Shown here in pieces: positions 5,217 to 36,357 of a DNA stretch of 64,000 bases. How positions within the stretch are numbered: the stretch's first letter is position 1; every line of letters starts with the position of its first letter. The translations under genes were made by a program, and so were the position numbers. The notes beneath the pieces are model-generated. The model had not been told where the DNA came from. It ran no database searches and was given only the letters and a program-made list of their open reading frames with translations. Origin of the DNA: an uncultured Leptospira sp. (GTDB lineage: Bacteria > Spirochaetota > UBA4802 > JAGODF01). The stretch spans positions 4,185 through 68,184 of the forward strand of contig CAZCYH010000008.1 of the NCBI GenBank assembly GCA_964502925.1, read 5' to 3'.

Positions 5217-5486
5217 ATGAGCAATGGCCTTGATGAGAGATTATCCCGATTGAGAAGCGAAGTGGCATTCCGACGCGCCTTCTGGTATGATGTCCGCTCG
5301 AAAATTCGCCTGCGAAAAAATGAATTGCTCACAATGGGATTTGAGAAATCTGTGGTTCGTAAGGATCGCGAATATAAGCGATTGCAAAAACAAAGGAAAT
5401 GCCTTTCAAAGGAGATCCGCCACCTTGAACAGAAGATCAACAGGACGATCGCGCGGCAGGAGAAAAAAGACAGCAACAAGGAATAG
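5217..5486 (+). CDS. Hypothetical small basic coiled-coil protein (89 aa)
   Basis: ATG at 5217, 2 nt after the thiE stop, with an open frame to 5486. The product is Lys/Arg/Glu-rich (…KDREYKRLQKQRKCLSKEIRHLEQKINRTIARQEKK…). No clear SD and no recognisable domain. It could be a real small gene or read-through noise. Confidence 0.3.
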   Translation: MSNGLDERLSRLRSEVAFRRAFWYDVRSKIRLRKNELLTMGFEKSVVRKDREYKRLQKQRKCLSKEIRHLEQKINRTIARQEKKDSNKE

Positions 5487-5532: not shown

Positions 5533-6780
5533 ATGCCCGATGGTTCCGTGATTGAAGAGCCGCGCTATCGTCCCGCGTTTCGTACCGGTCGGTCAATAGT
5601 TCCGGTGGACCAAAACGAGCTTATTCCGCTTCCTTTCGGGAGCGTTCTTTTTTCTCTTCCGGGTCGTTTCCCGATATTTTACAATACGCGGGGCGAAGAA
5701 GTTATTGTCAAAACAGCATCCGGTTCGTCGCAGGAAATTTCCGCAGCCTCGGCGTTTGTAAGTTCCGGATATCTTCGCACCTATTTGCCCGCCTACGTGA
5801 AATCCGATTCCGCGCCGCCGCTTTCGCTGTGGGCTTATGCAGGTCTGGTAATTAAAAATGGCACATTCTGGGTTCCTGCGCTTCGAATTGATGAAGATCC
5901 CCGGTCGGATGCGCAGCTTCATCAAAACGATGACGAACTTCACCGAAACATAAAGGAAATGAAATTTTTCCTTAAGAGAAACAGGCTTGCATCGCAGCTT
6001 GCCCATTGTGCCACCGAATACCGCTGCCTCTGCGCCCGGAATTTTTTTCTGAGCCGTTTTGAAGCGCCCGTGCCGACAAGCCCTGCGTGCAATGCGAGAT
6101 GTATTGGCTGTTTATCGAAGCAGGAGGAAAGCGGGTTTTGCTCATCACAGGAGAGGCTCTCGTTTGCTCCAGCGCCGGAAGAAATTGCTGAGGTGATTCT
6201 CTATCATTTCGAACGTGTCGATGCCGCAGTGGCGAGCTTCGGCCAGGGCTGTGAAGGCGAGCCGCTTTTGCGCGGAAAAGACCTTGCGCGCGCTATTGCA
6301 CTGGTGCGTGAGAAGACGCCGCGTGGGACCATCAACCTGAATACCAATGGTTCCAGGCCAGACGAAGTGAAGCGCCTCATCGATGCGGGACTCGATTCAA
6401 TCCGCATTAGCCTGAACTCGCCCACGGAGGAATATTATACACGCTATTTCCGGCCTCAAGGGTATTCTTATAGCGATGTCATTCGTTCAATTGATATTGC
6501 ACTCGATGCGGGGATTTTCGTGTCGATCAATCTTTTCTTTTTGCCCGGGTTTACGGACATGGAATCGGAAGTGGATTCATTATTTGCGTTTCTAAAAAAG
6601 TTTCCCGTGTCGATGATACAGGCGCGCAATCTCAACATCGATCCCGACCTGTATCTTGATTCCATTGGATTTTGTGAATCAAAACCATTGGGTATCCGTT
6701 CGCATCTGTCGATGCTTTCTGCCGGTTTTCCGAAAATGAAAATTGGATACTACAATCCGCCAAAGGAGAGATTTCAATGA
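5533..6780 (+). CDS. Radical SAM protein with an uncharacterised ~170-aa N-terminal domain
   Basis: CX3CX2C motif CNARCIGC at nt 6088-6111. A typical radical-SAM core follows (GCEGEPLL, TINLNTNGSRPDEVKRLIDAGLDSIRISLNSP). The start is chosen at ATG 5533. The upstream part of the track ORF (from 5287) overlaps the 5217 ORF and reads as low-complexity R/K junk. The stop overlaps the cooC start (ATGA at 6777-6780). Confidence 0.7.
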   Translation: MPDGSVIEEPRYRPAFRTGRSIVPVDQNELIPLPFGSVLFSLPGRFPIFYNTRGEEVIVKTASGSSQEISAASAFVSSGYLRTYLPAYVKSDSAPPLSLWAYAGLVIKNGTFWVPALRIDEDPRSDAQLHQNDDELHRNIKEMKFFLKRNRLASQLAHCATEYRCLCARNFFLSRFEAPVPTSPACNARCIGCLSKQEESGFCSSQERLSFAPAPEEIAEVILYHFERVDAAVASFGQGCEGEPLLRGKDLARAIALVREKTPRGTINLNTNGSRPDEVKRLIDAGLDSIRISLNSPTEEYYTRYFRPQGYSYSDVIRSIDIALDAGIFVSINLFFLPGFTDMESEVDSLFAFLKKFPVSMIQARNLNIDPDLYLDSIGFCESKPLGIRSHLSMLSAGFPKMKIGYYNPPKERFQ

Positions 6781-7550
6781 AAATCGCAATCACGGGCAAA
6801 GGCGGCGTTGGCAAGACAAGCATTGCCGCGGCAATCGCGCTCATTCTGGCAGAACGCGGGCACAGGGTTCTGGCGGTCGATGCCGATCCCGACACGAACC
6901 TTGCCTCAGCGCTCGGCATTCCCTATGCTGAGCATGGCGGGATACGAACCATTGCGCTGGAAAAAGAGCTTATTGAAGAGCGAACAGGTGCACGCGCTTC
7001 TGGTGGGATCTTTAAGCTGAACCCTGAGGTTTCCGATATCGCCGAAAAATTTGCCTTCCGCTATCGAAACGTTGATCTTGTGGTGCTCGGTGCCGTGCGT
7101 ACCGGAGGTGGTGGATGCGCATGCCCCGAAAGCGCGTTTCTGCGTTCTTTAGTGCAGGAACTGGTTTTGAGAAGGGATGAACATCTCGTGCTCGATATGG
7201 AGGCCGGCATTGAGCATCTTGGAAGGGCTACCGCACGGGGCGTGGATGCATGTATCGCGGTTGCGGAACCCGGCGCGCGGTCCATCGCAACAGTCCGGCG
7301 CATCGCGCAGATGGCAGAACAGATCGGCATCATGCGCACATACGTTATTATCAATGCTATCAGAAACGCCGGGGACGCGGGATTTTTAAAAGCGGGACTT
7401 TCCGATTTTGAGATAGTAGGGGAAATACCGTATCATGAAGCGATACGCGACAATGACAGAGATGGCCGGGCGGTGATCGATGAGTTGCCCGATGAAATTC
7501 GATCATATTTTGACGCGCTTGTCGAACGACTTTTAGTAAAATTTTCTTGA
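6777..7550 (+). CDS. cooC: CooC/AcsF-family Ni-insertion ATPase (CODH/ACS maturation), copy 1
   Basis: 257 aa. Deviant Walker A ITGKGGVGKTS, then DADPDTNL, and a C-x-C metal motif (GGGCACPES). Translationally coupled to the upstream radical SAM gene. Confidence 0.9.
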   Translation: MKIAITGKGGVGKTSIAAAIALILAERGHRVLAVDADPDTNLASALGIPYAEHGGIRTIALEKELIEERTGARASGGIFKLNPEVSDIAEKFAFRYRNVDLVVLGAVRTGGGGCACPESAFLRSLVQELVLRRDEHLVLDMEAGIEHLGRATARGVDACIAVAEPGARSIATVRRIAQMAEQIGIMRTYVIINAIRNAGDAGFLKAGLSDFEIVGEIPYHEAIRDNDRDGRAVIDELPDEIRSYFDALVERLLVKFS

Positions 7551-7689
7551 CCGATAATCCCTTTTCTTTAGCGTGAAAACCCCGGACGCGCCCGCAGCCT
7601 CAGTCCGACCGCACGAGTTCGGTGAGCAAAACTACATGCGTGTAATCACTATAATGCTGTCCGATGAATTATCCGGCAAGGAGATCGAT

Positions 7690-8742
7690 ATGAAAGAAAG
7701 ATTTTTAGCTACTGCCATTGGAAGCTTTCCCCACGATGATGCAAAAAAAGCGGTGGATATTATCCTTGAAACAATGCCCGAAGCGCCGGTATGGCCGCAG
7801 CTTCCGAAAATCGGACTCACCGAGCAGATGGAGATTCAGTATTCGGAAGGCATGCCGAGCGCGATTATCGATTCCGAAAAGGGACGAATGTATTTCGATA
7901 CCTCCGGCGATTACTCTGAAGAGCTTGCTGCTTTTTATGAGTCGTATATGAATGCGGTCGAAGGTGACGGCGATCTCTCGGCTTTTGTGATATCGCCGAA
8001 ATATTCAAGGGGTATTTATGAACTTAATTCCCGGCTTTCGCAGGATGGAAAAAAATATTCCTATGTGAAGGTGCATACCACCGGACCCTGTTCATTTTCG
8101 CTTACCGTGGTTGATGAACAGAAGCGAGCGATTTACTATAATGAAGAATTTCGCGATGTGGTGGTGAAAGCGCTTTCTATGAAGTGCCGATGGCAAATTC
8201 GAACATTCGCCCCTCTGGCGGAAAAAATCATCTGCTTCATTGATGAGCCCATCCTTTCGGCATTCGGTTCATCGACCTATATTTCTGTCAAACGCGACGA
8301 TGTGGTATCGCTCATCCGTGAAATGGTAGATGCCATTCACGCCGAAGGGGGAATTGCCGGTGTGCACTGCTGCGGCAATACCGAGTGGCCAATTCTCATC
8401 GAAGCCGGCGTGGATATCCTGAATTTAGACGCCTATCTGTATGGCGACACAATTGCGCTGTATCCCGAAGCGGTGAACAACTTTATTGCGCGCGGCGGAA
8501 CGATTGCCTGGGGAATTGTTCCAACCTCGGTGAGCATTCGAAATGAAAGCGCAGCTTCTCTGGAAAAGCGATTTGATGAGCTCGTGGCGCATCTTTCAAA
8601 GAAAAGCGGTATCGCTTCCGATGTGCTCTATGAACGCGCGATAATCACACCGTCATGCGGGACGGGCTCTATGAGCGTTGATGATGCCGAGCGGGTCTTT
8701 CACACGTTACATGAGCTTTCGAACGCGCTAAAAAAGCGTTAA
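7690..8742 (+). CDS. MetE-C-terminal-like (UroD/MetE superfamily, 'core-MetE'-like) zinc methyltransferase
   Basis: 350 aa from ATG 7690 (AAGGAG RBS 7 nt upstream; the track ORF starts earlier at 7573). Blocks resemble the cobalamin-independent methionine synthase catalytic barrel: CFIDEPIL (cf. IQIDEPA), GVHCCGN (His-x-Cys Zn ligands), and TPSCGTGS (distal Cys ligand). Confidence 0.7.
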   Translation: MKERFLATAIGSFPHDDAKKAVDIILETMPEAPVWPQLPKIGLTEQMEIQYSEGMPSAIIDSEKGRMYFDTSGDYSEELAAFYESYMNAVEGDGDLSAFVISPKYSRGIYELNSRLSQDGKKYSYVKVHTTGPCSFSLTVVDEQKRAIYYNEEFRDVVVKALSMKCRWQIRTFAPLAEKIICFIDEPILSAFGSSTYISVKRDDVVSLIREMVDAIHAEGGIAGVHCCGNTEWPILIEAGVDILNLDAYLYGDTIALYPEAVNNFIARGGTIAWGIVPTSVSIRNESAASLEKRFDELVAHLSKKSGIASDVLYERAIITPSCGTGSMSVDDAERVFHTLHELSNALKKR

Positions 8743-8753
8743 GGCGTAAGATC

Positions 8754-9503
8754 ATGTCCTATACCATCGCGATAACCGGCAAGGGCGGTACGGGCAAGAC
8801 GACCATCGCTGCGCTCATCGTTGTGGCAATGACACGGGCGGGCAAACGTCCGGTGCTGGCAGTGGATGCCGATCCCAATGCCTGTCTCGATGTGGCGCTG
8901 GGTGTTGAAGCGAAAAACACGGTGGGGCAATTGCGCGAGGATGCGCGAATACTTGCATCGGAGCATCCCGATATTTCAAAGCGCGAGCTTTTAGAGTTGA
9001 AGATTTCCGAAAGCCTAGTGGAAGGTGAGGATTTTGATCTCATTGCGATGGGGCGACCGGAAGGGCCGGGATGCTATTGCTACGCGAACAATGTGCTGCG
9101 CGAGGTACTGAAAGAAGTTTCTGATAATTATCCATATGTAGTTATCGACAATGAAGCGGGGCTTGAAAATCTCTCGCGCAGAATTGTGCGCCGCGTGGAC
9201 GCGCTTTTAGTGGTGGGGGAGCCGTCGCGAAACGGTATCGCGACGCTGCATCGGATACAGGCGCTTGCCGCAGAAATGAATATTGAATATGGGAAGCTCA
9301 TTGCGGTGATAAACCGGGTATATGAGGTAAAAAAATCCTATGATGACGTGAAGAAGGAAATGGGAGCGGACGGAATTGTTCTTCTGCCTCATGATGATGA
9401 AATACGAATGTTGAACGAAGCGGGAAGAAGTTTTTTTTCGCTACCGGAAAAAAATGCGGTATATCAAAAGGTGCGCGATGAGATCGTGGCGCCAGTAAAA
9501 TAA
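8754..9503 (+). CDS. cooC: CooC/AcsF-family Ni-insertion ATPase, copy 2
   Basis: 249 aa. ITGKGGTGKTT Walker A, DADPNACLD, and a C-x-C motif (GPGCYCYAN). It is paralogous to copy 1. Two paralogs are the usual pattern where one serves CODH and one serves ACS. Confidence 0.9.
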   Translation: MSYTIAITGKGGTGKTTIAALIVVAMTRAGKRPVLAVDADPNACLDVALGVEAKNTVGQLREDARILASEHPDISKRELLELKISESLVEGEDFDLIAMGRPEGPGCYCYANNVLREVLKEVSDNYPYVVIDNEAGLENLSRRIVRRVDALLVVGEPSRNGIATLHRIQALAAEMNIEYGKLIAVINRVYEVKKSYDDVKKEMGADGIVLLPHDDEIRMLNEAGRSFFSLPEKNAVYQKVRDEIVAPVK

Positions 9504-9522
9504 CTTCAAGAAGCGTGAAGGC

Positions 9523-11472
9523 ATGGAAAAGGAAAAGAAAAGAGCACAAGACCGCGCAGTCGATTCTGCATCAATAGCCATTATCGAGAAAGCGGAGAAG
9601 GATAATGTTCGCGTGAGCTTTTTCCGCATGGATGAGCAGGGAGCCCAGTGTGGCTTCGGGACAAGCGGCGTGTGCTGCCGCATCTGCCACATGGGGCCGT
9701 GCCGCATCAGCGCGAAAGCAAAATTCGGCGTCTGCGGTGCCGATGCGGATACCATCGTCGCGCGCAATTTTCTTCGCGAGGTGGCGGCAGGATGCGCCGC
9801 ACATTCAGATCACGCGCGGCATCTGGTACTGCTTCTGAAAAAGGTCGCGCAGGGGAAAGCGGGCAATTATGCGCTCAAAGATCGCGATGCGCTGCATCGC
9901 GTGGCGAAAAAATACGGCGTAGCCATTGAGCAGAGAAATGACGCCGAAATTGCCTCTGAACTTGCCGATGTCCTTCTTGGGGAATTCACCGCGCAGGAGG
10001 AACATTTAAAAACGCTGAAACTTGCGCCGGAAAAACGCCAGAGGTTGTGGGAAAAACTGGAAGTTGAGCCGCATGGAGTGGACCGGATGATTGTGGAATC
10101 GCTTCACCGCACGCACATGGGCGTCGATCACGACTACGCGCATATTCTGATGCACGCGTTTCGCGCGTCACTATCCGACGGGTGGGGCGGCTCGCGCATC
10201 GCGAGCCAGGTTTCCGACATCCTCTTCGGTACGCCAGCGCCCGTGCGCTCGATGGCGAATTTAGGGGTGCTTGGAGAGCGTACAGTGAACGTGGTGGTGC
10301 ACGGGCATGAGCCCGCGCTTTCCGAAATGCTTGCGGCTGCTTCAAAAGATCCCGAAATCATTGAGGCGGCAAAAAAGGTGGGGGCGGAAGGCATCACGCT
10401 TGCGGGAATCTGCTGTACCGCCAATGAAATTCTCATGCGCCACGGGATTCCCGTCGCGGGAAATTTTCTTCAACAGGAGCTGGCAGTCGTCACAGGTGTG
10501 GTTGAGGCGCTCATCATCGATGTGCAATGCTGTATGCCGGGACTGGCTGAGGTGGCGGCATCATACCATACCGAAATCATTTCTACCAGCGATATTGCGC
10601 ACACAGTGGGAGCAGTTTCCGTCCAGTTCACCGCAGAAGAAGCCTATGATGGCGCAAAACGCATTCTTCTACGCGCTATAGAAAATTTTGTGCGCAGAGA
10701 TTCATCGAAAGTGTTCATACCGAAAGAAGCGAAACCCCTTGTCGCGGGCTTCAGCGTGGAAGCCATCCGCTACATGCTCGGCGGACGATTCCGTGCTTCG
10801 TATCGGCCACTCAACGACGCCATCATGCAGGGGAGAATTCGGGGCGTGGCGGGCATTGTGGGATGCAATAATCCCAAGCAGAAACTGGATGAGTACATCG
10901 ATACACTCACCGAGGAACTTCTTAAGCGAAATGTGCTGGTGCTCAAAACCGGATGCGCGGCAATCGCCTCGGCGAAGGCGGGCTATCTCACGCCGGAGAC
11001 TGCGCTGCGGCAGGCAGGGGCGGGGCTGCGCGAAGTCTGCGAAGCAATCGGCATGCCGCCGGTTTTGCATATGGGAAGCTGTGTGGACAATTCGCGCATT
11101 TTAGAGGCTGCCACTGAAATCGTATTTGAAGGCGGTTTGGGCGATGATCTGTCGATGATTCCCGCGGTTGGAGTGGCGCCGGAATGGATGAGTGAGAAGG
11201 CCATTGCCATCGCCATGTATTTCGTGGCATCGGGAATTGATGTGATACTCGGCCATCCCTTTTATATTTCCGGCTCAAAGAACGTGATGCGCTTTTTGAA
11301 TGAAGAATCGAAAAATATTTTTGGTGCGTCATTTCATGTGTACGATGATCCATGTGAGGCGGCGGATGCGATTATGGAAATCATTGAGCGGAAGCGCGAC
11401 GCGCTCGGCATCAACCAGCGCACGGAACGGAAACTTTTCGATATGAAGGACAGGAGGCAGCTCAGTGTCTAA
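9523..11472 (+). CDS. cooS: Ni-dependent carbon monoxide dehydrogenase catalytic subunit (CooS/AcsA)
   Basis: 649 aa. N-terminal D/B-cluster cysteine motifs (QCGFGTSGVCCRICHMGPCRI...FGVCGAD). Hybrid-cluster-fold blocks run throughout (VHGHEPALSEM, TLAGICCTANE, HMGSCVDNSR). Confidence 0.95.
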   Translation: MEKEKKRAQDRAVDSASIAIIEKAEKDNVRVSFFRMDEQGAQCGFGTSGVCCRICHMGPCRISAKAKFGVCGADADTIVARNFLREVAAGCAAHSDHARHLVLLLKKVAQGKAGNYALKDRDALHRVAKKYGVAIEQRNDAEIASELADVLLGEFTAQEEHLKTLKLAPEKRQRLWEKLEVEPHGVDRMIVESLHRTHMGVDHDYAHILMHAFRASLSDGWGGSRIASQVSDILFGTPAPVRSMANLGVLGERTVNVVVHGHEPALSEMLAAASKDPEIIEAAKKVGAEGITLAGICCTANEILMRHGIPVAGNFLQQELAVVTGVVEALIIDVQCCMPGLAEVAASYHTEIISTSDIAHTVGAVSVQFTAEEAYDGAKRILLRAIENFVRRDSSKVFIPKEAKPLVAGFSVEAIRYMLGGRFRASYRPLNDAIMQGRIRGVAGIVGCNNPKQKLDEYIDTLTEELLKRNVLVLKTGCAAIASAKAGYLTPETALRQAGAGLREVCEAIGMPPVLHMGSCVDNSRILEAATEIVFEGGLGDDLSMIPAVGVAPEWMSEKAIAIAMYFVASGIDVILGHPFYISGSKNVMRFLNEESKNIFGASFHVYDDPCEAADAIMEIIERKRDALGINQRTERKLFDMKDRRQLSV

Positions 11473-14400
11473 GATCATCAGCAGTGCGGCCATTGATGGT
11501 GCCATCGCGTGGGTTGCGCGCGCGGAAAAGAAACTGGATGAAGTTATCCTGACTAAGGGAGAAGATGCTGCGGTTGCTTTCCCTGATACAGCCTACTATC
11601 TTCCCATTATTTATTCGTTTACCGGGAAAAAAGTTGCGACGCTTGCCCACTGCCGAGAGGTGTTGCGGGAGGCGAAAGAACTCTTGCCGCAAAGGCCTTC
11701 AGAACATGTGTGGCTGCCGTATCTGGGAAACGCGCTTGATGCGGGCGTGGCAGCGCTTTTTGCCTGCGAAATAATCGAAGCGTGCAAATATCTCATTGGA
11801 CCAAATCCGGTTGAAGGCATCTGGCTCGGTGCCGCGAACGATATCATCATGCGGGAGCGGGGAGTGGAATTCGTGGACGGGACCGCGCCTGGATTTGCAG
11901 CGGTAACCGGCGCAGCACCCTCGAATGACATTGCGGTGAAGATTGCGCGCGAACTTCAGGAAAAAAATCTCTATGTGTTTATGGCCGGCTCCACAAATGG
12001 AAGACAATTTGCAGAGCAGCTTGCCGAAGAAGGGGTGCAGCTCGGATGGGAGACGCGGCTTGTTCCCTATGGCAGGGATGTGTCGGCGCTGGTGTATGCG
12101 CTCGGTTTTGCAAACCGTGCAGCGCTTTCGTTTGGAGGAGTCAGGCCCGGAGATTATGCGGGCAATCTGCGCTATAATAAAAACCGCATCATGGCCTTTG
12201 TCCTTGCCTTTGATGAAGTCGATGCCGATAAATACGCTCTTGCTGCAGGTGCCATCAACTACGGCTTTCCGGTGATTGCCGATACTGCCATCCCGCAGAT
12301 TCTTCCTACTGGCGTGTGCACCTACGAGCACGTGGTGTCATCGGTTCCCTATGAGAAAATAGTGGAGCGCGCGCTTGAAGTGCGCGGCTGCAAGGTGAAA
12401 ATCACCAGAGTGCCCATTCCCGTTCCATACGGCCCCGCTTTCGAAGGCGAGCGGATACGCAAACAGGACACGCATGCGGAATTCGGCGGGAATATCACCA
12501 CCGCATTTGAATTCGTCACCATGGTGGGTATGGACGAAATCGAAGATGGCGAAATTGAAATCATCGGCAAAGACATCGACGAAATAGAAGCTGGGAGCGC
12601 ACTGCCGCTCGGCATATGGGTTGAGGTGGCGGGAAGAAAGATGCAGCCGGATTTTGAATCAATCTTAGAGCGGCAAATCCATCATCTCATCAACGGCGCA
12701 GAAGGCATCTGGCACATGGGGCAGCGCGATATCGTATGGACGCGCGTCTCGAAAAGCGGATTTGCCAGAGGCCTGCGGTTGCGGCATTATGGCGAAATTC
12801 TTCATGCGCAGTTTCTTTCCAATTATCCTGCCATTGTCGATAAAGTCAAAGTGACGCTCATCACCGATGCAGAAGAAGCGGAGCGGCGCGTTGCAATTGC
12901 CCGGAAGGTATATCGGGAGCGCAATCAGCGCCTTGCTTCAATGACCGATGAATCCGTCGATACATTTTATTCGTGTCTTCTCTGCCAGAGCTTTGCGCCG
13001 AACCACGTATGCGTCATCACCCCTGAACGGCTGGGCCTCTGCGGTGCGTACAACTGGCTCGACGGAAAAGCGGCATACGAAATCGACGAAACCGGGCCGA
13101 ATCAGCCGGTGAAGAAAGGCACGGTCATCGATCCGGGCCGGGGAATTTTCACCGGCGTCGATGAGTACGTCTATTCCAATTCGCATAAAAAAGTCGAAAG
13201 TTTCAGCATGTATTCCATCATGCACAATCCCATGACCAGCTGCGGCTGTTTTGAAGTGATTCTTGCCTACGTGCCCGAGTGCAATGGTGTGATGGCAGTC
13301 AACCGCGAGTACACCGGCGATACGCCCGTTGGAATGACCTTCTCCACGCTTGCGGGCAATGTGGGCGGGGGCATGCAGACGCCGGGCTTCATGGGCTGCG
13401 GCAAGGTGTATCTCACATCGAAAAAATTTGTTTATGCAGAGGGAGGGCATAAACGCCTGGTGTGGATGACCACTGATCTGAAGCAGATGGTGGGCGATGA
13501 CATGAAAAAGCTTTTCGCAGAATTGGGGCTTGATGGCCTTTTTGAGAAAATTGCTGATGAAACCATATCGGCGAACCCCGCAGAAATACGACAATTCATG
13601 GAAAAAAATGAGCATCCCGCGCTCGAAATGGACGATATGGCTCTCTATGCCGAAATGGAGAGCACGCCCCGGGAGACAATTGTCCCTGAGAAAGAAGAAG
13701 CGGGTGAGATAAAAAAAGCGCAAGAGGTGCATGATGAAACGGTGCATCCAGTAAGCGAAACGCGCACGATGCCGCACTCTGTGGATGTGGAGGCACTGAA
13801 GAGAGAACTCTTTGCCGAGCTTCGTGATGAAATGAAGAAAGCCATCACGAAGGAAGTGGTATCGGAGATCATCAGCGTTTTAGAGGAAAAGTTTCTTGGC
13901 GCAAAACGGCCTGCTTCACCGGGTAATGTTTCCGTGGAAGAAAAAAGAGATCAGGTGCCTTTAAGCGAATCCGGGCATCCGCATCCGAAACCGTCTGAAA
14001 GAATTTCCGCGATTCAATCCTTTCCGATTCCAAAAGAATCCTTCAGCGGCGCGGTGCACCGTGTGAAAATTGGTGCCACGAAAGCGGAAGGCGGCACGCG
14101 GGGACGAACGTATGAAATCGGCGGCGCGAATACCATGCCCTTCCATCACTGGGAAGGCATTATGCCGAACCGTCCGCTTATGGCGATGGAAGTCTTCGAC
14201 CGGGTTGGAGAGAAATATCCACAGGCACTCAAAGACGTCTGGGGTGAATTATTATTAGATCCGGTGCGCATGGCAAAGGCGTGCGTGGAAAAATATGGTG
14301 CGGATCTCATAAGCGTGCGTCTTGATGGCACGCATCCCGAGCGCGGAAATTATTCTCCCGAAGATTCGCTTAAGCTGGTGAAATCGGTTCTTGCGGCAGT

Positions 14401-14980
14401 GGATGTGCCGCTTGTCATTACGGGGCACAATCACTATGAAAAGATGAATGCGGTGATGAAGGAAATCGCCGCGGGGTGTGCTGGTGAAAATCTGCTTTTG
14501 AACTGGGCAGAGCAGGACAATTATCGTGTGATAGCAGGCGCCGCGATAGCGTACGGGCATACGGTGGTGGCGCAAAGCCCCATTGATGTGAATATTTCCA
14601 AGCAGCTCAACATTTTGCTTACGGGAATGGACGTGCCTATTAATCGCATCGTCGTCGATCCGCTCACCGGCGCGATGGGTTACGGTATCGAATACACCTA
14701 TTCCGTAATGGAGCGCATTCGCCTCACGGGCCTCGGCGGCGACGCAATGCTGCTTTCGCCCATGATTGTGTCCCCTGGACAGGAATGCGCCCGCATCAAG
14801 GAACTGCGCGCCGAAGAGATAGAGTTTCCTTCCTGGGGCGATCTGAAAAAGCGCGCGGCGCTGTGGGAACTTTCCACCGCCACGGCATTGCTCTATGCCG
14901 GGGCTGATATCCTCATCATGTATCATCCTGAAGCCGCGGGTGCTTTGAAAAAATCAATCATGCAGCTTATGGAGAAGTAA
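11465..14980 (+). CDS. acsB: Acetyl-CoA synthase (AcsB/CdhC, A-cluster subunit) fused to a C-terminal CFeSP small-subunit-like (AcsD/CdhD-like) TIM-barrel domain
   Basis: 1171 aa. GTG start overlaps the cooS stop. The AcsB part (about aa 1-720) is bacterial-type with a long N-terminal domain. It carries the [4Fe4S] ligand block CLLCQSFAPNHVCVITPERLGLCGA and the proximal-Ni Cys-Gly-Cys motif MTSCGCFE. An Asp/Glu/Lys-rich linker of about 130 aa follows. The last ~310 aa (…LISVRLDGTHPERGNY…VPLVITGHNHYEKMNAVMKEIAAG…VVDPLTGAMGYGIEYTYSVMERIR…) resemble the CdhD/AcsD corrinoid-protein TIM barrel. Confidence 0.9.
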   Translation: MSKIISSAAIDGAIAWVARAEKKLDEVILTKGEDAAVAFPDTAYYLPIIYSFTGKKVATLAHCREVLREAKELLPQRPSEHVWLPYLGNALDAGVAALFACEIIEACKYLIGPNPVEGIWLGAANDIIMRERGVEFVDGTAPGFAAVTGAAPSNDIAVKIARELQEKNLYVFMAGSTNGRQFAEQLAEEGVQLGWETRLVPYGRDVSALVYALGFANRAALSFGGVRPGDYAGNLRYNKNRIMAFVLAFDEVDADKYALAAGAINYGFPVIADTAIPQILPTGVCTYEHVVSSVPYEKIVERALEVRGCKVKITRVPIPVPYGPAFEGERIRKQDTHAEFGGNITTAFEFVTMVGMDEIEDGEIEIIGKDIDEIEAGSALPLGIWVEVAGRKMQPDFESILERQIHHLINGAEGIWHMGQRDIVWTRVSKSGFARGLRLRHYGEILHAQFLSNYPAIVDKVKVTLITDAEEAERRVAIARKVYRERNQRLASMTDESVDTFYSCLLCQSFAPNHVCVITPERLGLCGAYNWLDGKAAYEIDETGPNQPVKKGTVIDPGRGIFTGVDEYVYSNSHKKVESFSMYSIMHNPMTSCGCFEVILAYVPECNGVMAVNREYTGDTPVGMTFSTLAGNVGGGMQTPGFMGCGKVYLTSKKFVYAEGGHKRLVWMTTDLKQMVGDDMKKLFAELGLDGLFEKIADETISANPAEIRQFMEKNEHPALEMDDMALYAEMESTPRETIVPEKEEAGEIKKAQEVHDETVHPVSETRTMPHSVDVEALKRELFAELRDEMKKAITKEVVSEIISVLEEKFLGAKRPASPGNVSVEEKRDQVPLSESGHPHPKPSERISAIQSFPIPKESFSGAVHRVKIGATKAEGGTRGRTYEIGGANTMPFHHWEGIMPNRPLMAMEVFDRVGEKYPQALKDVWGELLLDPVRMAKACVEKYGADLISVRLDGTHPERGNYSPEDSLKLVKSVLAAVDVPLVITGHNHYEKMNAVMKEIAAGCAGENLLLNWAEQDNYRVIAGAAIAYGHTVVAQSPIDVNISKQLNILLTGMDVPINRIVVDPLTGAMGYGIEYTYSVMERIRLTGLGGDAMLLSPMIVSPGQECARIKELRAEEIEFPSWGDLKKRAALWELSTATALLYAGADILIMYHPEAAGALKKSIMQLMEK

Positions 14981-15076: not shown

Positions 15077-15991
15077 ATGCTTCACGCATATAAAATAGCA
15101 AACGGTGCGATAGTCCCAGCGAACGAGGAATCGGCGCCGATACTGGTGTATATCAACCCCACTATTGAAGAAAAGGATCTTCTGGTGGGAAATTACAATA
15201 TCGATTCGCACACCCTGCAGTCCGCGCTCGACCCCGATGAGCTTTCCCGGCTGGAGTTTGAGCCCGATCATGCCGCCGTCATTCTCAAACGCCCGCAGAA
15301 TTATTCTGCTGCCGATGAATTCCTTTTTAAAGTTTCATCAATCGGCATTTTCTGGTACCGGGAGCGCGTCATCATTCTCCTCATGGAAGATATACAGCTT
15401 TTCGACGGCAAAATTTTCTCGAAAGTGAATTCAATCGGCGATCTGGTGCTGAAAATTATATTGCGCATTATCTATCATTATATCGATCACCTGAAAGTTA
15501 TCAACATGATTTCCGATTCGCTCGAGCAGAAAATCAATACCTCCATGCGCAATAAATATCTCATCAATCTTTTCACGCTCGAAAAAAGTTTGGTCTATTA
15601 TCTCAATGCCATCAATTCGAATGCGACAGTGATAGAGCGCATAAAAAACAATCGCGCGCGCCTTGCGCTTGAAAATGAGCAGATTGAAATGCTGGACGAT
15701 ATCATCATCGAAAATACGCAGTGCCAGAAACAGGCGGAAATCTATTCGAACATTCTTGCCGGCCTCATGGACGCGCGCGTCTCAATCGTCAGCAACAATC
15801 TCAATATCCTCATGAAAACCTTAAACCTCATCACCATCGCCATCATGGTGCCTACCTTCGTGGTGAGTGCGTTTTCCATGAACGTGGCGATTCCCATGCA
15901 GCACTATCCGCATGCCTTCTGGATCATCATGGCGCTTGCGCTTATATCTGTGCTGACGTTTATGTTCTTCTGGCGCCTCAAAAAGTGGTGA
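15077..15991 (+). CDS. CorA-family divalent-metal (Mg/Co/Ni) transporter with a non-canonical SMN motif in place of GMN
   Basis: 304 aa. A soluble N-terminal CorA-like domain, then two C-terminal TM helices separated by FSMNVAIP at the position of the canonical YGMNF. Basic C-terminus (WRLKKW). Confidence 0.7.
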   Translation: MLHAYKIANGAIVPANEESAPILVYINPTIEEKDLLVGNYNIDSHTLQSALDPDELSRLEFEPDHAAVILKRPQNYSAADEFLFKVSSIGIFWYRERVIILLMEDIQLFDGKIFSKVNSIGDLVLKIILRIIYHYIDHLKVINMISDSLEQKINTSMRNKYLINLFTLEKSLVYYLNAINSNATVIERIKNNRARLALENEQIEMLDDIIIENTQCQKQAEIYSNILAGLMDARVSIVSNNLNILMKTLNLITIAIMVPTFVVSAFSMNVAIPMQHYPHAFWIIMALALISVLTFMFFWRLKKW

Positions 15992-16010: not shown

Positions 16011-17102
16011 TCACAGGCTTTTTTGCGGGTGCCGTAAAATGTGCAGTGCGGTCGCTTTGAATGAAGCGGTTACCGTGCTTTTTTCTTGTAATCCGAGCTC
16101 GGAAAGTGAGTGCGGCGTGATATATGCAATGAGCTTAAATCCGCAATCGAGCGAAACGCGCACATGCGTGCCTGCATGAGTGATGCTGCATACCTTTGCC
16201 TCGAATGAATTGCGCATGCTGCTAGATGCATTTTTATCTTTTGAAATAACGATATGCTCGGGGCGTATTCCGAGTGTTACCATTTTGCCTTTATGCGCTG
16301 CGCCTGAAACTTCAATTGCTCTGCCGGAAACCTCGACAGTAAAACCGCCATTAAAAACATCAACGACGGTTCCGGAAAGAATTGTTTCAACACCCATGAA
16401 CGATGCAATGAATTCATCGGCGGGATTGCTGATGATGTCAGCCGGAAAGCCTTCTTGAATCACGCGGCCATTTCTCAGCACCACAATCCTGTCGGCCAGA
16501 CGAAGCGTTTCGTCGCGATCGTGGCTGATAAATATGACACCGCATTGGACATGGCGCAGCATTTTTTCGAAATCATCAAGCATGGAATCGCGGGCCAATG
16601 TATCGAGCGCTGAAAACGGTTCGTCCATGAGCAGGAGTTTTGGCTTTAGTATCAGGGAACGCGCGAGGGATACACGGCGCGCTTCTCCTGCAGAAAGAGT
16701 GTGTGAGCGGCGATGAAGCAGATGCGCAATGCCGAACATATCGGCGAACTCATGTACTTTTCGTTTGATTTCACTGGCAGGCAATTTTCGAATTTTCAAA
16801 CCGAGTGCGATGTTCTCACCTGCCGTTGTGTTCAAAAGCAAAGGTTCCTGAAAGAGCATGGTGATGGATTTTCGACGATCGTACAGAGCGCGGATATCAT
16901 GAATTGGAATTTCGTCGAATATGAGATCAAGCTCGCGTACTTTAATAAGGCCAGCAAGTGCCAGAAGCAGTGTAGTTTTTCCCGCGCCATTGTGCCCGAT
17001 AATTGCGATGCTTTCGCCGACGTGAAGGCGGATATTATTGACCGAAAGTGTGAATTGGCCAATTTGCGCCGTTATTTTTTGAATATCGAGCAGCGATTTC
17101 AT
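16011..17102 (-). CDS. tupC: ABC transporter ATP-binding subunit with C-terminal TOBE/Mop domain (tungstate/molybdate type, TupC/ModC-like)
   Basis: 363 aa. Walker A GHNGAGKTT, signature LSAGEARRVSLARS, Walker B LLLMDEP. A C-terminal ~110-aa TOBE-like beta domain is present. Confidence 0.8.
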   Translation of the reverse strand: MKSLLDIQKITAQIGQFTLSVNNIRLHVGESIAIIGHNGAGKTTLLLALAGLIKVRELDLIFDEIPIHDIRALYDRRKSITMLFQEPLLLNTTAGENIALGLKIRKLPASEIKRKVHEFADMFGIAHLLHRRSHTLSAGEARRVSLARSLILKPKLLLMDEPFSALDTLARDSMLDDFEKMLRHVQCGVIFISHDRDETLRLADRIVVLRNGRVIQEGFPADIISNPADEFIASFMGVETILSGTVVDVFNGGFTVEVSGRAIEVSGAAHKGKMVTLGIRPEHIVISKDKNASSSMRNSFEAKVCSITHAGTHVRVSLDCGFKLIAYITPHSLSELGLQEKSTVTASFKATALHILRHPQKSL

Positions 17103-17104
17103 GG

Positions 17105-17803
17105 TTATTTCATGCGTCCTTTTTGCTGCACATACGACAGGAAATAGTTCACGGCAAAAGAAAGAACCAGCAGAATGATGCCGAACGCAATGGCAGTGTC
17201 GAAATTTCCGCGCGATGTTTCCATCACGGTGGCGGTGGTGAGTACGCGGGTTGAACCTTTGATGTTGCCGCCCACCATCATTGAGGCGCCCACTTCGCTT
17301 ATCACGCTTCCAAAACCTGCCATAATTGCCGCAAGAAGTGGCAGGCGTGCCTGACGGTAGAGGATGAAAAGCGACTGCAGGTGTGAAGCGCCGAGTGCAA
17401 AAATTTGAAGGCGAAAATTTTTTGGTACCTGCTGCAGCGCCGAAAGCGTTATGCCCGTCACCATAGGGGTGGCGATGAGCACCTGCGCAATAATGATGGC
17501 AAGAGGTGTATAGAGGATTTCAAAATCGCCGAACACTCCCCCGCGCCAGAGCATAAGCGTGGTGAAAAGCCCTACTACCACAGGGGGAACGCCCATGCCG
17601 GTGTTGACAAGACCGACCACAAAGGTTCGACCGGGAAATTCGTTGAGCGCAATTGCACTGCCGATGGCGATGCCGATGATTGAACTGATGATGGTGGATG
17701 TAATCGTCACCTCGAGTGTGAGAAAAAGCACCTCGTAGACTTCGCGATCGAACGATGCGATGAGGGCAATAGCTTTTTGTAATCCTTCAAGAATGAGTTC
17801 CAT
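17105..17803 (-). CDS. tupB: ABC transporter permease (TupB/ModB-like)
   Basis: 232 aa polytopic membrane protein with an EAA-like loop region (…GASMMVGGNIKGSTRVLTTAT…). It is adjacent to the ATPase and the binding-protein gene. Confidence 0.8.
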   Translation of the reverse strand: MELILEGLQKAIALIASFDREVYEVLFLTLEVTITSTIISSIIGIAIGSAIALNEFPGRTFVVGLVNTGMGVPPVVVGLFTTLMLWRGGVFGDFEILYTPLAIIIAQVLIATPMVTGITLSALQQVPKNFRLQIFALGASHLQSLFILYRQARLPLLAAIMAGFGSVISEVGASMMVGGNIKGSTRVLTTATVMETSRGNFDTAIAFGIILLVLSFAVNYFLSYVQQKGRMK

Positions 17804-17805
17804 GG

Positions 17806-18681
17806 TTATTTCCGATCGTTCTTATATATTGGAATAAAGAGAGATTCGCCAAATGTTTTTTTCCCGAATTGGGCGATGATGTTTTGTGCTCCTGGTGAAA
17901 ACAGGTAGTCTGCGAATAATTGTGCTTCCTTCGATCTGATACGAGGAAACCGGGTCGGATTGATTTCAATAACAGAATATTCATTGAATAGCATTTCTTC
18001 GTTTTCCCACACAATTGTAAGGGATAGATTTCTTTTAAGAACAGCCCAGGTTGCTGAATCGGTCAGCGTATAGCCGTTTTTTTCCGATGCAATCGAAAGA
18101 GTTTCTCCCATGCCCAAACCCGTTTCCTGATACCATGTACGACCATCAGGCATTATAGCAGCTTTTTTCCAGATTTCGCGCTCCGCATAATGCGTGCCGG
18201 AATTATCTCCGCGGGAAATGAAAATCGCTTCCTTCTGGATGATTGCGCGGAATGCATCGGTTGGCGTAATTGCGCGGTGTATCTGTGCAGGATCATTCGG
18301 AGGGCCGACGATTATAAAAGAATTTTTCATCAATCCCCGGCGTCGGATTCCATAGCCCTCATTCATGAAGCGCTCTTCTTCGGCTGGCGAATGTGCAAGG
18401 AGAATATCGGCTTCGCCGCGCTTTCCGAGAGCCATGGCTTTGCCTGATCCAACCGCAATCACTTTTACCCTGATGCCGTGTTCCTGTTCAAAAGGGGGAA
18501 TGAGTTCATCCAGAATACCACTGTCCTGCACGCTGGTGGTGGTAGCAAGTATGATGGAAGGCTTTTTCGTGCAGGAGCAAAATGCGATCGAAGTAATAAA
18601 TAGTGCACCGAAAGCAATTATATGACGCAAATAGGGAACACGGGAAAATTCAATATGTGTAGCGCCGTGGCTGGTGTTCAT
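17806..18681 (-). CDS. tupA: Periplasmic oxyanion-binding protein, TupA-like (tungstate/molybdate)
   Basis: 291 aa. Signal peptide/lipobox (FCSC). The mature protein has the TTTSVQDSGILDEL block characteristic of TupA-type tungstate binders. PBP fold look (…VIAVGSGKAMALGKRGEADILLAHSP…). Confidence 0.7.
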   Translation of the reverse strand: MNTSHGATHIEFSRVPYLRHIIAFGALFITSIAFCSCTKKPSIILATTTSVQDSGILDELIPPFEQEHGIRVKVIAVGSGKAMALGKRGEADILLAHSPAEEERFMNEGYGIRRRGLMKNSFIIVGPPNDPAQIHRAITPTDAFRAIIQKEAIFISRGDNSGTHYAEREIWKKAAIMPDGRTWYQETGLGMGETLSIASEKNGYTLTDSATWAVLKRNLSLTIVWENEEMLFNEYSVIEINPTRFPRIRSKEAQLFADYLFSPGAQNIIAQFGKKTFGESLFIPIYKNDRK

Positions 18682-19653: not shown

Positions 19654-20826
19654 TCACGCATGCTGCGATTCAATAAGCCTTCTGAAATATCTGCAGTTTT
19701 CAACCAGGTCATTGCTGTGCCGGAAAAGTCCGCCGCCCACTAAATAGATGACATCATCTCCGTAAAGCTGTAGCATTTCAGGAATACGTTCCATCGTCAT
19801 GCCGCCGCCAGGGGTGGGAAAAATTGGCCGCATGCTTCCAAGCTCTTCGGTGCATGCACGCACAATTGCCGCACAGTCCTTGCGGCTGAAAGAAAATCGT
19901 CCCCCGAAGTTCGGGTAGATGGTGGCATCGGCGCCTGCGATGCGGCACAGAGTTCCGAACAGGCAGGAGGGCGAGATGCCGTTTTGGTTGATTGCAAATG
20001 ATCCCACAAATGCAGGATGCGCAATCAGGGGAAGCTCGATCTTTTCATGGGCGGCTAGCATGCGCATGGCATCGAAACCGACAAGTCCAGGTGCAATTAA
20101 AAGTGCGCCTGCGCCATATTCCTTCGCAAACATTGCGCGCTCAAGTAGTTCGTCGCACGGTGCGGTGATATTCGGCGCGTAGATGGCATTGCCCCCTGTT
20201 TTTGCATTCGCGTTATAAATCGATTCGGCGCAGCGGGAGACGCGCTCTTTGAAGCAGGCAAAGGGCTGATTGGTAAGCCCGTGATCGTCCTTGATGATAT
20301 CGATGCCGCCAAGCGCGAATTGGTAGGCAAGCTCAGCCAATCCTTTCGATGAAAGCCCCATGGGTTTGAGTGCGGTGGCAAGCAGCTGCCCTGATTGGCG
20401 ATGCAACATATTTCGCAAGCCTGAAATTCCGAATCGCGGACCGGTGAACATTTTCAAAAGCGCCGGTGGAAGCTCTACGCGTTCAAGCCGTATGCCGGGT
20501 TTGAGGCTGATATTCCCGAAAAGTACGTTTAGAAGTTGTGTGAACTCGCACGCGGTAATATCGACGGAAAAGCTTATGAGCGCATAATACGCACCATCTA
20601 TTTGTTCAAAGCGTTCGATGCGTCCAAATACTGAATTGCGGATAAAACCGTTCGGAATGAGATCTTCTGGAAATTCAATCGTCTGCTTAATGCAGATATC
20701 CGCAGCGTGTTCGCGCGCTTCGTGCTCGTTGCCGGCAAGGCGATAGAGTGCAAAAAAGCGTTCCGTGGAATCACTGGAAACAGTGTGTGCGGCAATGAAC
20801 TCGTGAAAGAACTCTTTGCTGTTCAC
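19654..20826 (-). CDS. RubisCO large-subunit-like protein (form IV RLP-type; KDDH instead of KDDE)
   Basis: 390 aa. RubisCO large-chain blocks: LKPMGLSSKG (cf. KPKLGLS), GGIDIIKDDH (cf. GGLDFTKDDE; the carbamylated Lys and Asp are kept, but Glu is replaced by His), LIAHPAF (cf. HIHRAMHAV; Arg295 replaced), and LVGGGLFRHSND (cf. GGGTLGHPWG). The start overlaps the upstream transketolase-C stop by 4 nt. Confidence 0.85.
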   Translation of the reverse strand: MNSKEFFHEFIAAHTVSSDSTERFFALYRLAGNEHEAREHAADICIKQTIEFPEDLIPNGFIRNSVFGRIERFEQIDGAYYALISFSVDITACEFTQLLNVLFGNISLKPGIRLERVELPPALLKMFTGPRFGISGLRNMLHRQSGQLLATALKPMGLSSKGLAELAYQFALGGIDIIKDDHGLTNQPFACFKERVSRCAESIYNANAKTGGNAIYAPNITAPCDELLERAMFAKEYGAGALLIAPGLVGFDAMRMLAAHEKIELPLIAHPAFVGSFAINQNGISPSCLFGTLCRIAGADATIYPNFGGRFSFSRKDCAAIVRACTEELGSMRPIFPTPGGGMTMERIPEMLQLYGDDVIYLVGGGLFRHSNDLVENCRYFRRLIESQHA

Positions 20827-21830
20827 AGCGCCTCGGCGTTTACGCTTCCCGATATTTCAGAAAGGCGGATTTCAGCAAGCTCGTCTTCAGTGATGCGAAA
20901 AGATGCGCCAAGTATTGCTTCGATGTTGCGTACAAGTGCCATTGCGTCGAGGCCGTATTCTTTTTTCAAATAGGGCAGGCTTGCGCCGTGGGCGAAGGTA
21001 TCACGCAGTCCGATGCGCACGAGCTTTTTGCCGATGCCATGCTCGGCCATCATTTCCGCAACGGCGCTTCCAAGTCCGCCGATGGTGGTATGATTTTCCA
21101 TGGTGATGACGCCACAGCGCGCCTTATCGATTGCGTCTAATACGAGTGGATCATTGAATGGTTTCAGCGTGGCGATGTGCAGATGGGAAATTGAAACGCC
21201 GCGAAGTTTGAGTGCCTCTGTTGCACGCAGCGCCTCTTCCGTGCAGATGCCCGAAGAAAAGAGTGCAATGTCGCTGCCGCGCGAGATGACGCGCGCTTTA
21301 CCGAAGATGAGGGGATTGTCGTCACCGAAAAGCTTTGGTATTTCACCGCGCAGCATTCGGACATACACTGGTCCTTGAATGGATGCGGCTACATCCAGAA
21401 TCGTTTTGACATCGGTAGCGTCACCAGTTTCAAGCACAGTCATGTTGGGAAGAGAACGCATTACTGCAATGTCTTCAATTGCCTGATGCGTCGCTCCGCC
21501 CGGGGTGGTAATGCCAGGAAGAAAGCCGAACATTTTGACGGGAAGATTCGGATACGCGACCGACATTGCAATCTGATCAAACGCGCGGCGATAGATAAAC
21601 ACCGCGAAGGTATGTACCAGCGGCAAAAATCCCTCGCGCGCCAATCCCCCCGCAAATGAAAGCATATTCTGCTCGGCAATGCCCATGGAAAGAAAGCGAT
21701 CGGGATAGGTCTCGCGAAAAAGGTCGATTTCAGTGGAACTCGTGAGATCGGCCGAAAGTACCAGCGCTTCGGGATGATCTTTCGCCCATTTAACTAAATT
21801 TTTCGCATGTACTTTGCTTGCAATTTCCAT
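20823..21830 (-). CDS. Transketolase, C-terminal subunit (split transketolase)
   Basis: 335 aa. Pyrimidine-binding/C-terminal domain blocks (GIAEQNMLSFAGGLAREGFLPLVHTFAVF; PGITTPGGATHQAIEDIAVMRSLPNMTVL). Confidence 0.85.
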   Translation of the reverse strand: MEIASKVHAKNLVKWAKDHPEALVLSADLTSSTEIDLFRETYPDRFLSMGIAEQNMLSFAGGLAREGFLPLVHTFAVFIYRRAFDQIAMSVAYPNLPVKMFGFLPGITTPGGATHQAIEDIAVMRSLPNMTVLETGDATDVKTILDVAASIQGPVYVRMLRGEIPKLFGDDNPLIFGKARVISRGSDIALFSSGICTEEALRATEALKLRGVSISHLHIATLKPFNDPLVLDAIDKARCGVITMENHTTIGGLGSAVAEMMAEHGIGKKLVRIGLRDTFAHGASLPYLKKEYGLDAMALVRNIEAILGASFRITEDELAEIRLSEISGSVNAEAL

Positions 21831-21835
21831 GATAA

Positions 21836-35279: not shown

Positions 35280-35467
35280 TTTTCGTTCGACGGCCGTTTT
35301 CCCCATTCCGCAATTGTAACCTGTAAAATGCTCTATCTGAAAAATATTTAATCCAATACAGTTCTTTTTATTGACAGATGATGTGCCAAAAATATAGATT
35401 ATCGTCGGTCTGATTGCATGACTGGTTGCTTGAAAGTGTCATTGAAAAAAATAAAGGAGCGTCAAAC

Positions 35468-36352: not shown

Positions 36353-36357
36353 CGGGA

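Follow-up and report, generated by a model that had tools for sequence, protein, structure and literature searches.

Organization of the operon

We analysed a 64-kb stretch of DNA from an uncultured Leptospira sp. (contig CAZCYH010000008.1; hereafter the window), whose gene content was established from open reading frame (ORF) calls, Pfam and curated hidden Markov model (HMM) scans and tblastn, and which holds an operon for CO dehydrogenase/acetyl-CoA synthase (CODH/ACS) that includes a putative methyltransferase with the fold of the methionine synthase MetE. Seven co-oriented ORFs of the plus strand lie at or near the positions proposed in an earlier annotation made from the letters alone (the sequence-only reading), and its gene set, namely a radical S-adenosylmethionine (SAM) gene, cooC, a MetE-like gene, a second cooC, cooS and an intact fusion of acsB and acsD encoding 1171 amino acids, was borne out together with its coordinates. 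The functional unit consists of cooC1 - MetE-like - cooC2 - cooS - acsB::acsD. We regard it as a variant of a known system, a CODH/ACS cluster type of wide occurrence in which one subunit of the corrinoid iron-sulfur protein (CFeSP) is tethered to the synthase and a putative methyltransferase of MetE fold, as yet uncharacterised, is encoded.

All genes of the unit are read from the plus strand. The start of cooC1 (6777-7550) overlaps the stop of the radical SAM gene (ATGA), and the MetE-like gene (7690-8742; 350 aa) is followed after 11 nt by cooC2 (8754-9503), which is followed after another 19 nt by cooS (9523-11472; 649 aa). The acsB::acsD gene begins with a GTG at 11465, behind an AGGAGG site, with an 8-nt overlap with the cooS stop. 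The start of the MetE-like gene at ATG 7690 is supported by its homologues, all of which begin with MKE(K/R)FLATAIGSFP, and an AAGGAG site lies 7 nt 5' of it; because the gene starts there, cooC1 is followed by a gap of 139 nt (7551-7689). The earlier description of the junctions, an ATGA overlap at 6777 and gaps of 11-19 nt, thus holds for the overlap and for the two gaps around cooC2 but not for the passage from cooC1 to the MetE-like gene. Every operon gene is under purifying selection, with dN/dS values of 0.03-0.19 between the window and the related locus L002.

The 139-nt gap is retained in close relatives and could carry an internal promoter. It contains a TATAAT at ~7646 without a well-spaced -35 element, and the final 15 nt of cooC1, including the region of its stop codon (ATTTTCTTGACCGAT), do not vary among the Leptospirales loci compared (the window, L002, L007 and L008). 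The gap has no unusually stable RNA fold (z 0.5), no riboswitch or structured RNA was matched by Rfam in the operon or in the gap at the gathering or E <= 1 thresholds, and the promoter and terminator scans gave counts no higher than the shuffle background. A single transcription unit is plausible, as the mostly close junctions had led the sequence-only reading to conclude, but the 139-nt gap and the background level of the promoter and terminator scans make the implication less strict than it was worded.

CODH, the CooC paralogues and the AcsB::AcsD fusion

The cooS product (CooS/AcsA, the Ni,Fe CO dehydrogenase catalytic subunit) scored 629.2 bits against TIGR01702 (cut-off 478) and matched the Prismane family at 1.6e-161. 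Both cooC genes encode nickel-insertion ATPases with a deviant Walker A motif (GKGGxGKT) and a CxC motif, and were assigned to the CooC family by these motifs. The product of cooC1 (paralogue C1; CbiA, ArsA and related P-loop families) carries GKGGVGKT and GCAC, and that of cooC2 (paralogue C2; AAA_31 and CbiA) carries GKGGTGKT and GCYC. C1 and C2 share 38% identity and form two separate orthologous lines of paralogues; almost all related loci have C2 directly 5' of cooS, or of a ferredoxin (Fd)-FNOR-cooS block, and C1 next to the MetE-like gene, on one side or the other. We infer that C1 is AcsF-like and serves ACS and that C2 is the CODH maturase.

The last gene of the operon encodes a polypeptide with four Pfam domains, CODH_A_N (PF18537), CdhC (PF03598), ACS_CODH_B_C (PF19436) and CdhD (PF03599). 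Its AcsB part (aa 1-725; 11465-13639), the acetyl-CoA synthase with the A-cluster, scored 1031 bits against NF040764 (cut-off 800) over residues 10-725, and the A-cluster cysteines (C504-x2-C-x8-C-x9-C and C593-G-C595) are present and invariant in 41 fusions. The AcsD part (aa 851-1171; 14015-14980), the small TIM-barrel subunit of CFeSP, scored 373 bits against the delta subunit model NF003376 (cut-off 280; residues 853-1169), and 243.8 bits against the acetogen-type model WLP_AcsD, whose cut-off is 430. The two are joined by a charged, poorly conserved linker of ~125 aa (aa 726-850; 13640-14014), in which column conservation is 0.22-0.47 as against ~0.8 in the flanking domains (mean of 0.79 in AcsD).

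A database protein of 1171 aa is 100% identical to the fusion and supports its start codon, and 48 full-length fusions of 1107-1319 aa occur in other genomes, the fusion being the rule among related loci. An artefact of assembly or frameshift can be ruled out, because these 48 full-length copies recur elsewhere and because the gene is under purifying selection. The fusion fixes the stoichiometry of the CFeSP small subunit to ACS in a manner reminiscent of the tightly assembled archaeal ACDS (acetyl-CoA decarbonylase/synthase) complex. In the literature searched, which was not exhaustive, we found no description of an AcsB-AcsD fusion, of a MetE-like gene in acs clusters or of the absence of acsE.

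The MetE-like protein

The product of the MetE-like gene is a single barrel without a second N-terminal barrel of the kind that completes the folate site of MetE. The fold comparison gave scores of 22.0 with MetE (1t7l), 21.5 with a single-barrel B12-independent methionine synthase (3rpd), 19.3 with 1ypx, 17.7 with the methylcobalamin:coenzyme M (CoM) methyltransferase MtaA (4ay7) and about 17 with uroporphyrinogen decarboxylases, and the protein has the MetE catalytic-barrel fold. Down to 31% identity G11 and P14 (of an IGSxP motif), E45, D185 (of a DEP motif), H226, D247 and C323 are invariant, and C228, I10 and S12 are nearly so in the same alignment; the subfamily also has an invariant Cys-Cys pair in an HCCGN motif. 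From their resemblance to known motifs, the positions conserved in that alignment would correspond to the homocysteine-binding motifs of MetE together with its His/Cys/Cys and acidic zinc ligands, and zinc would accordingly be predicted at H226, C228, D247 and C323.

The family nevertheless stands apart from the curated ones. Homologues number in the thousands at ~60% identity, most of them unnamed or listed as 'hypothetical protein', and an exhaustive phmmer search with the MetE-like protein gave 434 clusters (50% identity) with E <= 1e-30, a number that rose to 2048 when the limit was set to E <= 1e-3. The window protein matched no Pfam family at all, twenty-five family members gave no match to the MetE Pfam models (Meth_synt_2) at E up to 1, and neither the sequence nor the profile found anything significant among PDB sequences. 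The archaeal methionine synthase model PRK00957 gave the window protein 24.6 bits, far below its cut-off of 258, and was weakly matched by 23 of the 25 members (best 5.7e-10), every one of them likewise far short of the cut-off; MtbA was weakly matched by 16 of the 25. The description as a MetE-type zinc methyltransferase therefore stands as regards fold and active-site pattern, but not as regards membership, since the protein belongs to no curated MetE family.

A close parallel is with the core-MetE enzymes (Dehalococcoides mccartyi cbdbA481 and those of methanogens, of the PRK00957 type), with which the protein shares a single barrel of ~350 aa, the MetE catalytic-domain fold and an HxC...C pattern of putative metal ligands, the fourth of which is probably an Asp, and for which a methyl-corrinoid would be the expected donor; the metal pattern reported for cbdbA481 is HxCxnC plus Asp (PMC7005905). 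It differs from them in forming a separate, tightly conserved subfamily and in its setting, the gene lying inside a CODH/ACS cluster whereas the Dehalococcoides gene is found with those for SAM synthetase and S-adenosylhomocysteine hydrolase. Another difference from Dehalococcoides is that CODH (CooS) is present in this module. With respect to MtaA, MtbA and MtsA, of the uroporphyrinogen decarboxylase superfamily, the MetE-like protein is structurally nearer to MetE than to MtaA and has the MetE-type IGSxP and DEP motifs, and the module holds no CoM-related genes.

Three relatives outside acs clusters were placed in their gene context. A 44%-identical one is the third gene of a set HcyBio (PF01837) - NIL/4Fe-4S ferredoxin - MetE-like (L090:6409-9110; Logan SRR21358377_17), a homocysteine-biosynthesis operon with a putative methylase as its last gene. 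A 35%-identical Carboxydothermus relative bears the annotation methionine synthase and is encoded at a distance from the acs genes, and the context of a 39%-identical relative is uninformative.

A widespread module and its variants

Relatives were sought by scanning one genome per species, which gave at least 563 matched stretches, and neighbourhood statistics were obtained by clustering the ORFs of the best 80 of these loci. MetE-like relatives are present in no fewer than 563 species, spread over more than 15 phyla, among them Spirochaetota, Planctomycetota, Verrucomicrobiota, Acidobacteriota, delta-proteobacterial orders, Ignavibacteriota, Bacteroidota, Omnitrophota, KSB1, Lentisphaerota, Fibrobacterota and Bacillota; the nearest relatives of the window among the matches listed are metagenome-assembled genomes (MAGs) of Leptospirales, which makes an uncultured member of that order its most likely source. 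The module is frequent among MAGs whose labels name peat (SPRUCE), lakes or further anoxic environments as their origin.

The recurrent gene order is [HcyMT or CooC-C1 or ACT-Fhs] - MetE-like - (C1) - C2 - [Fd-FNOR] - CooS - AcsB::AcsD - AcsC - RACo, where HcyMT is a homocysteine S-methyltransferase (PF02574). The MetE-like protein, the AcsF-type CooC, the second CooC, CooS, AcsB::AcsD, AcsC and RACo form one conserved module, and the operon of the window is a local copy of it that has lost the adjacent acsC-RACo pair. The MetE-like gene was co-located with the cluster in 80 of the 80 sampled loci, in one block of shared orientation with CooC, CooS and AcsB::AcsD, and the MetE-like subfamily (at least 56% pairwise identity) lies inside the acs block in essentially every sampled locus with enough flank. 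Its mean pairwise identity of 0.66 is close to those of CooS (0.67) and AcsBD (0.70), and the pairwise distances of the two proteins MetE-like and AcsBD are correlated (r = 0.67); this level of conservation and the co-variation fit a protein that binds to the complex and is passed on together with it. Co-location and co-variation support the earlier suggestion that the MetE-like gene is a true component of the cluster and not a chance neighbour.

In about 16 of the 80 loci a full-length PF02574 homocysteine S-methyltransferase (~298 aa, 242 bits) lies directly 5' of the MetE-like gene (e.g. L046:4683-5579, L056, L057, L071, L074, L081 and L086), and these loci encode two different homocysteine-type methyltransferase barrels beside CFeSP and RACo; the window has no PF02574. 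In five delta-proteobacterial or Syntrophales MAGs (L027, L041, L055, L076 and L082) an ACT-domain protein of 179 aa and formate-tetrahydrofolate ligase (Fhs) lie directly 5' of the module on the same strand, abutting the MetE-like gene in four and, in L027, where the MetE-like gene was not called as an ORF, cooC1.

The module may also be split. In a Spirochaetota MAG (L003/L033; JAKQUI010000077.1) cooC1 and the MetE-like gene are followed by a small glyoxalase-fold gene, and ~4 kb with two opposite-strand genes separate them from cooC2 - cooS - fusion, so the C1/MetE-like pair stays together when the module splits. In a Planctomycetota MAG (L001; a 4.6-Mb contig) some 6 kb separate the module from a CRISPR-Cas locus (Cas1, Cas2 and HNH/RuvC fragments), and its acs genes are broken into many short ORFs, of which long-read frameshift errors are the probable cause.

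AcsC, RACo and AcsE

Outside the operon, practically every ORF of the window with 150 aa or more was scanned against Pfam, except a few within or overlapping longer ORFs, and the scans found in them no Pterin_bind (PF00809, as in AcsE), no CdhD/FeS (AcsC) and no S-methyl_trans domain. With tblastn, the AcsC, RACo, DUF3786, Fhs, HcyMT, CooF-like ferredoxin and FNOR proteins of related loci had no match in the window. The earlier statement that the window has no acsC or acsE is thereby upheld, by the Pfam scans for both and by tblastn for AcsC.

Elsewhere the picture is different for acsC. Of 42 loci, an automatic count gives 32 with AcsC directly 3' of the fusion, and ~37 have it there when ORF-calling artefacts are allowed for, usually with RACo after it; the loci without an adjacent acsC are the window, its two closest relatives (L002 and L007) and two delta-proteobacterial ones. 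A Leptospiraceae MAG (L006) has the order cooC - MetE-like - cooC - cooS - fusion - acsC - RACo - DUF3786. Because ~37 of 42 related loci, including this Leptospiraceae one, keep acsC after the fusion, the missing adjacent acsC is a derived, lineage-specific rearrangement and not a property of the system. The claim that the only CFeSP-like piece is the one fused to ACS is hence true of this lineage but not of most relatives. Since all operon genes are under purifying selection, acsC is expected to be encoded elsewhere in this genome, and the operon is unlikely to be a decaying remnant. The slot that acsC occupies in relatives holds here a CorA-type divalent-cation channel gene (15077-15991, plus strand; PF01544, 4.4e-34), which is kept in L002 and L007 with a dN/dS of 0.03; a role for it in Ni/Co supply would be speculation.

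As for AcsE, it does not recur beside clusters of this type: in 142 flanking ORFs from the 80 loci, Pterin_bind falls outside the 25 commonest Pfam families (each in at least three proteins).

The radical SAM gene and its flank

The radical SAM gene (5533-6780, plus strand) encodes 415 aa with a match of 75.6 bits to PF04055 (cut-off 29.5), a CX3CX2C motif (CNARCIGC) and an N-terminal region of ~180 aa of unknown fold; it reached the cut-off of no subfamily model in the curated HMM scan. A 415-aa database protein is 100% identical to it and supports the start at 5533. Upstream lies a small ORF of 89 aa (5217-5486, plus strand) without a Pfam match, part of the conserved flank outside the CODH/ACS module, which is also found 5' of the radical SAM gene in L002 (89 aa) and in a further locus, L088 (78 aa).

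In the 80 loci the radical SAM gene is present in five only, all of Leptospirales, and in two of these unrelated genes separate it from cooC. L088, on a 4.8-Mb contig, carries a 63%-identical homologue in the same order of LolA-like, RsmE, ThiD2-ThiE, small ORF and radical SAM genes, followed by unrelated genes and no CODH/ACS. Since the same flank occurs without CODH/ACS, the radical SAM gene stands outside the module, and a function as operon component or maturase is ruled out by synteny; the module has evidently been inserted beside this spirochaetal backbone flank. The sequence-only reading had counted the radical SAM enzyme as part of the system, which is not sustained, the gene being a flank gene of Leptospirales loci. 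From the ATGA overlap, co-transcription of this gene with cooC1 is likely in this lineage, but it gives no ground for a shared function.

Comparison with known systems

The canonical bacterial acs cluster (Moorella thermoacetica / Carboxydothermus type) comprises acsA/cooS, acsB, acsC, acsD, acsE, cooC, acsF and RACo. The window operon shares with it a CooS and an AcsB above their thresholds, intact A-cluster cysteines, two CooC-family ATPases and an AcsD domain, and most of its relatives also share AcsC and RACo. It departs from the canonical cluster in having AcsB and AcsD on one polypeptide of 1171 aa with a variable linker, in the extra conserved MetE-fold gene, in the lack of AcsE as a recurrent neighbour and, in the window, in the lack of adjacent acsC and RACo. 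The module also resembles a MetH parts list spread over separate genes, with HcyMT (PF02574, in ~20% of loci), a barrel methyltransferase, a corrinoid carrier and a reductive activase, but unlike in MetH the corrinoid carrier would be the CFeSP of ACS, no PF00809 was seen, and the window has no PF02574 gene.

Possible function of the MetE-like protein

We tentatively favour, at somewhat under an even chance and from sequence evidence, the reading of the MetE-like protein as a methyl-CFeSP:homocysteine methyltransferase. Gene content, fold, conserved residues, synteny and co-inheritance are observed; zinc, a thiol as substrate, CFeSP as the partner and the way in which the methyl group moves are what we infer. 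The homology clues argue for homocysteine as substrate and a methyl-corrinoid as co-substrate, and synteny and co-inheritance argue for CFeSP as that corrinoid. In such a system CooS would interconvert CO2 and CO, and the AcsB domain would make or cleave acetyl-CoA at its intact A-cluster, with nickel loaded into ACS by C1 and into CODH by C2. The AcsD domain, held on AcsB by a flexible linker of ~125 aa, would form CFeSP with an AcsC encoded elsewhere, and the MetE-like protein would be the methyltransferase that serves this CFeSP. Within the single MetE-type barrel its zinc site would activate the thiol group of homocysteine or of a closely similar compound, and the predicted reaction is CH3-Co(III)-CFeSP + homocysteine <-> Co(I)-CFeSP + methionine. 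The methyl pool of ACS would thus have a direct connection to methionine and SAM that needs neither MetH nor a classical MetE, through a 'trans' methionine synthase for which CFeSP and its activase RACo would do what the B12 and activation modules do in MetH. As source of the methyl group one may think of acetyl-CoA cleavage, as in Dehalococcoides, or of a folate branch if AcsE is encoded elsewhere.

The finding that single-barrel core-MetE enzymes use methylcobalamin, and not methyl-folate or methyl-tetrahydromethanopterin, counts for this reading (PMC7005905), and methyl-CFeSP has been proposed, without evidence, as the physiological donor in Dehalococcoides (PMC7005905). The parallel that the sequence-only reading had drawn with Dehalococcoides, where methyl groups derived from acetyl-CoA would feed methionine synthesis, gains support from the 44%-identical relative in the homocysteine operon and from the PF02574 genes of ~16 loci. 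Several observations weigh against the favoured reading. The protein falls below the curated threshold of every methionine synthase model and has no Meth_synt_2 match; a second homocysteine methylase looks redundant where PF02574 is also present; the ACT-Fhs genes directly 5' in five Syntrophales-type loci point to folate C1 chemistry; the lack of a recurrent AcsE fits a takeover of its job by the MetE-like protein equally well; and with no acsC found in the window by tblastn, the CFeSP partner is only putative for this genome.

The main rival, somewhat unlikely in our estimation, takes the protein for a non-orthologous replacement of AcsE, the barrel binding methyl-tetrahydrofolate, as the catalytic barrel of MetE does, and methylating Co(I)-CFeSP. 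For it speak the one-for-one correspondence of the module to the canonical acs cluster, except that the MetE-like protein is present and AcsE is not, the position of Pterin_bind outside the 25 most frequent families among the 142 flanking genes, Fhs next to the module in five loci and the apparent redundancy of another homocysteine methylase beside PF02574. Where PF02574 is present, moreover, the order HcyMT - MetE-like - (CFeSP) - RACo mirrors that of the MetH modules, which is Hcy-Fol-Cob-Act. Against this, the strict thiol-type metal site (H226, C228, D247 and C323) with IGSxP and DEP would be unexpected in a folate:cobalt transferase, an operon for homocysteine biosynthesis holds the closest relative from beyond the subfamily, AcsE may be encoded elsewhere, and the characterised single-barrel core-MetE enzymes do not use methyl-folate (PMC7005905). 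An unlikely further possibility is a methyl branch independent of folate altogether, in which CFeSP would never meet folate and the MetE-fold enzyme, with PF02574 where present, would be the only methyl port. Run one way, such a branch would supply methionine and SAM with methyl groups from acetyl-CoA, and run the other way it would carry thiol-bound methyl groups into acetyl-CoA.

The remaining explanations seem to us less probable still. That the protein is an entry port for methylthiols, loading methyl groups from a thioether or methylated thiol onto CFeSP in the manner of MtsA or MtaA, and from there via ACS into acetyl-CoA, is distinctly unlikely; methionine, methanethiol or dimethyl sulfide, methylmercaptopropionate or a CoM-like cofactor would be the candidate substrates. 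Zinc-thiolate methyltransferases of the superfamily such as MtsA work reversibly, and the frequency of the module in MAGs from peat, lakes and other anoxic settings would agree with such a role, but the module has no conserved transporter or dedicated corrinoid protein for these substrates, the motifs of amino-acid-binding type favour homocysteine, and demethylation of a thioether is energetically harder than that of a sulfonium or methylamine. We regard as very improbable that the protein is not a methyltransferase but an accessory or maturation factor acting with the CooC1 ATPase, for instance as a metal-handling scaffold for the A-cluster, as might be thought from the almost constant adjacency of the two genes, from their pairing ~4 kb away from cooS-acsBD in L003 and from the invariant Cys-Cys pair in HCCGN. 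The same metal-site pattern occurs in distant relatives without CooC or ACS neighbours, some modules without C1 keep the MetE-like gene, and the fold and the motifs, too, are typical of an enzyme active site. Finally, the existence of distant relatives (35-44% identity) away from acs genes could suggest a housekeeping methionine synthase that merely lies beside CODH/ACS without coupling to CFeSP, to which we give hardly any credence, since the subfamily lies in the acs block in essentially every locus with enough flank, across more than 15 phyla, and co-varies with AcsBD.

In regard to the proposal of the sequence-only reading that methyl groups reach or leave the corrinoid by a route other than AcsE and methyl-tetrahydrofolate, a non-AcsE route is thus suggested, whereas the share given to the radical SAM enzyme and a system-wide absence of acsC are not retained.

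Other features of the window

Further genes of the window lie on the minus strand. Beyond corA, an ABC transporter (16011-18681; TOBE-domain ATPase, permease and PBP_like_2 binding protein) of the molybdate, tungstate or sulfate type is also found beside corA in L002. The gene of a RuBisCO-like protein (390 aa), in which only the large-chain catalytic domain is present, precedes a transketolase split into an N-terminal and a Pyr/C-terminal half (19654-22771), an arrangement that recalls methylthio-sugar salvage or related pentose shunts. Two adjacent ORFs of 332 aa with a ~100-nt overlap (35462-37356) comprise one with WYL and WCX domains and one without a Pfam match. An ADP-forming acetyl-CoA synthetase (39430-41559; CoA_binding, Succ_CoA_lig and ATP-grasp_5) could serve the acetyl-CoA of ACS as an outlet or inlet by way of acetate/ATP.

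Significance

CODH/ACS is among the best-studied ancient enzyme systems, and surveys usually define the bacterial complex by the five subunits AcsA to AcsE (e.g. PMC12827605); by that definition they would score the present module as incomplete despite its occurrence in at least 563 species. The AcsB::AcsD fusion offers a natural tethered ACS-CFeSP for structural work. If the MetE-like protein does take its methyl group from CFeSP, the route proposed for Dehalococcoides, from acetyl-CoA over CFeSP to methionine, would gain a linked, widespread and directly testable candidate enzyme, and if it replaces AcsE it would be a new solution to the pterin-to-cobalt step. Should the folate-independent reading be true, hundreds of species in more than 15 phyla would exchange the methyl group of ACS directly with a thiol of the homocysteine/methionine type. 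Whether the protein takes methyl groups from CFeSP or replaces AcsE, a large family of 'hypothetical proteins' gains a specific hypothesis.

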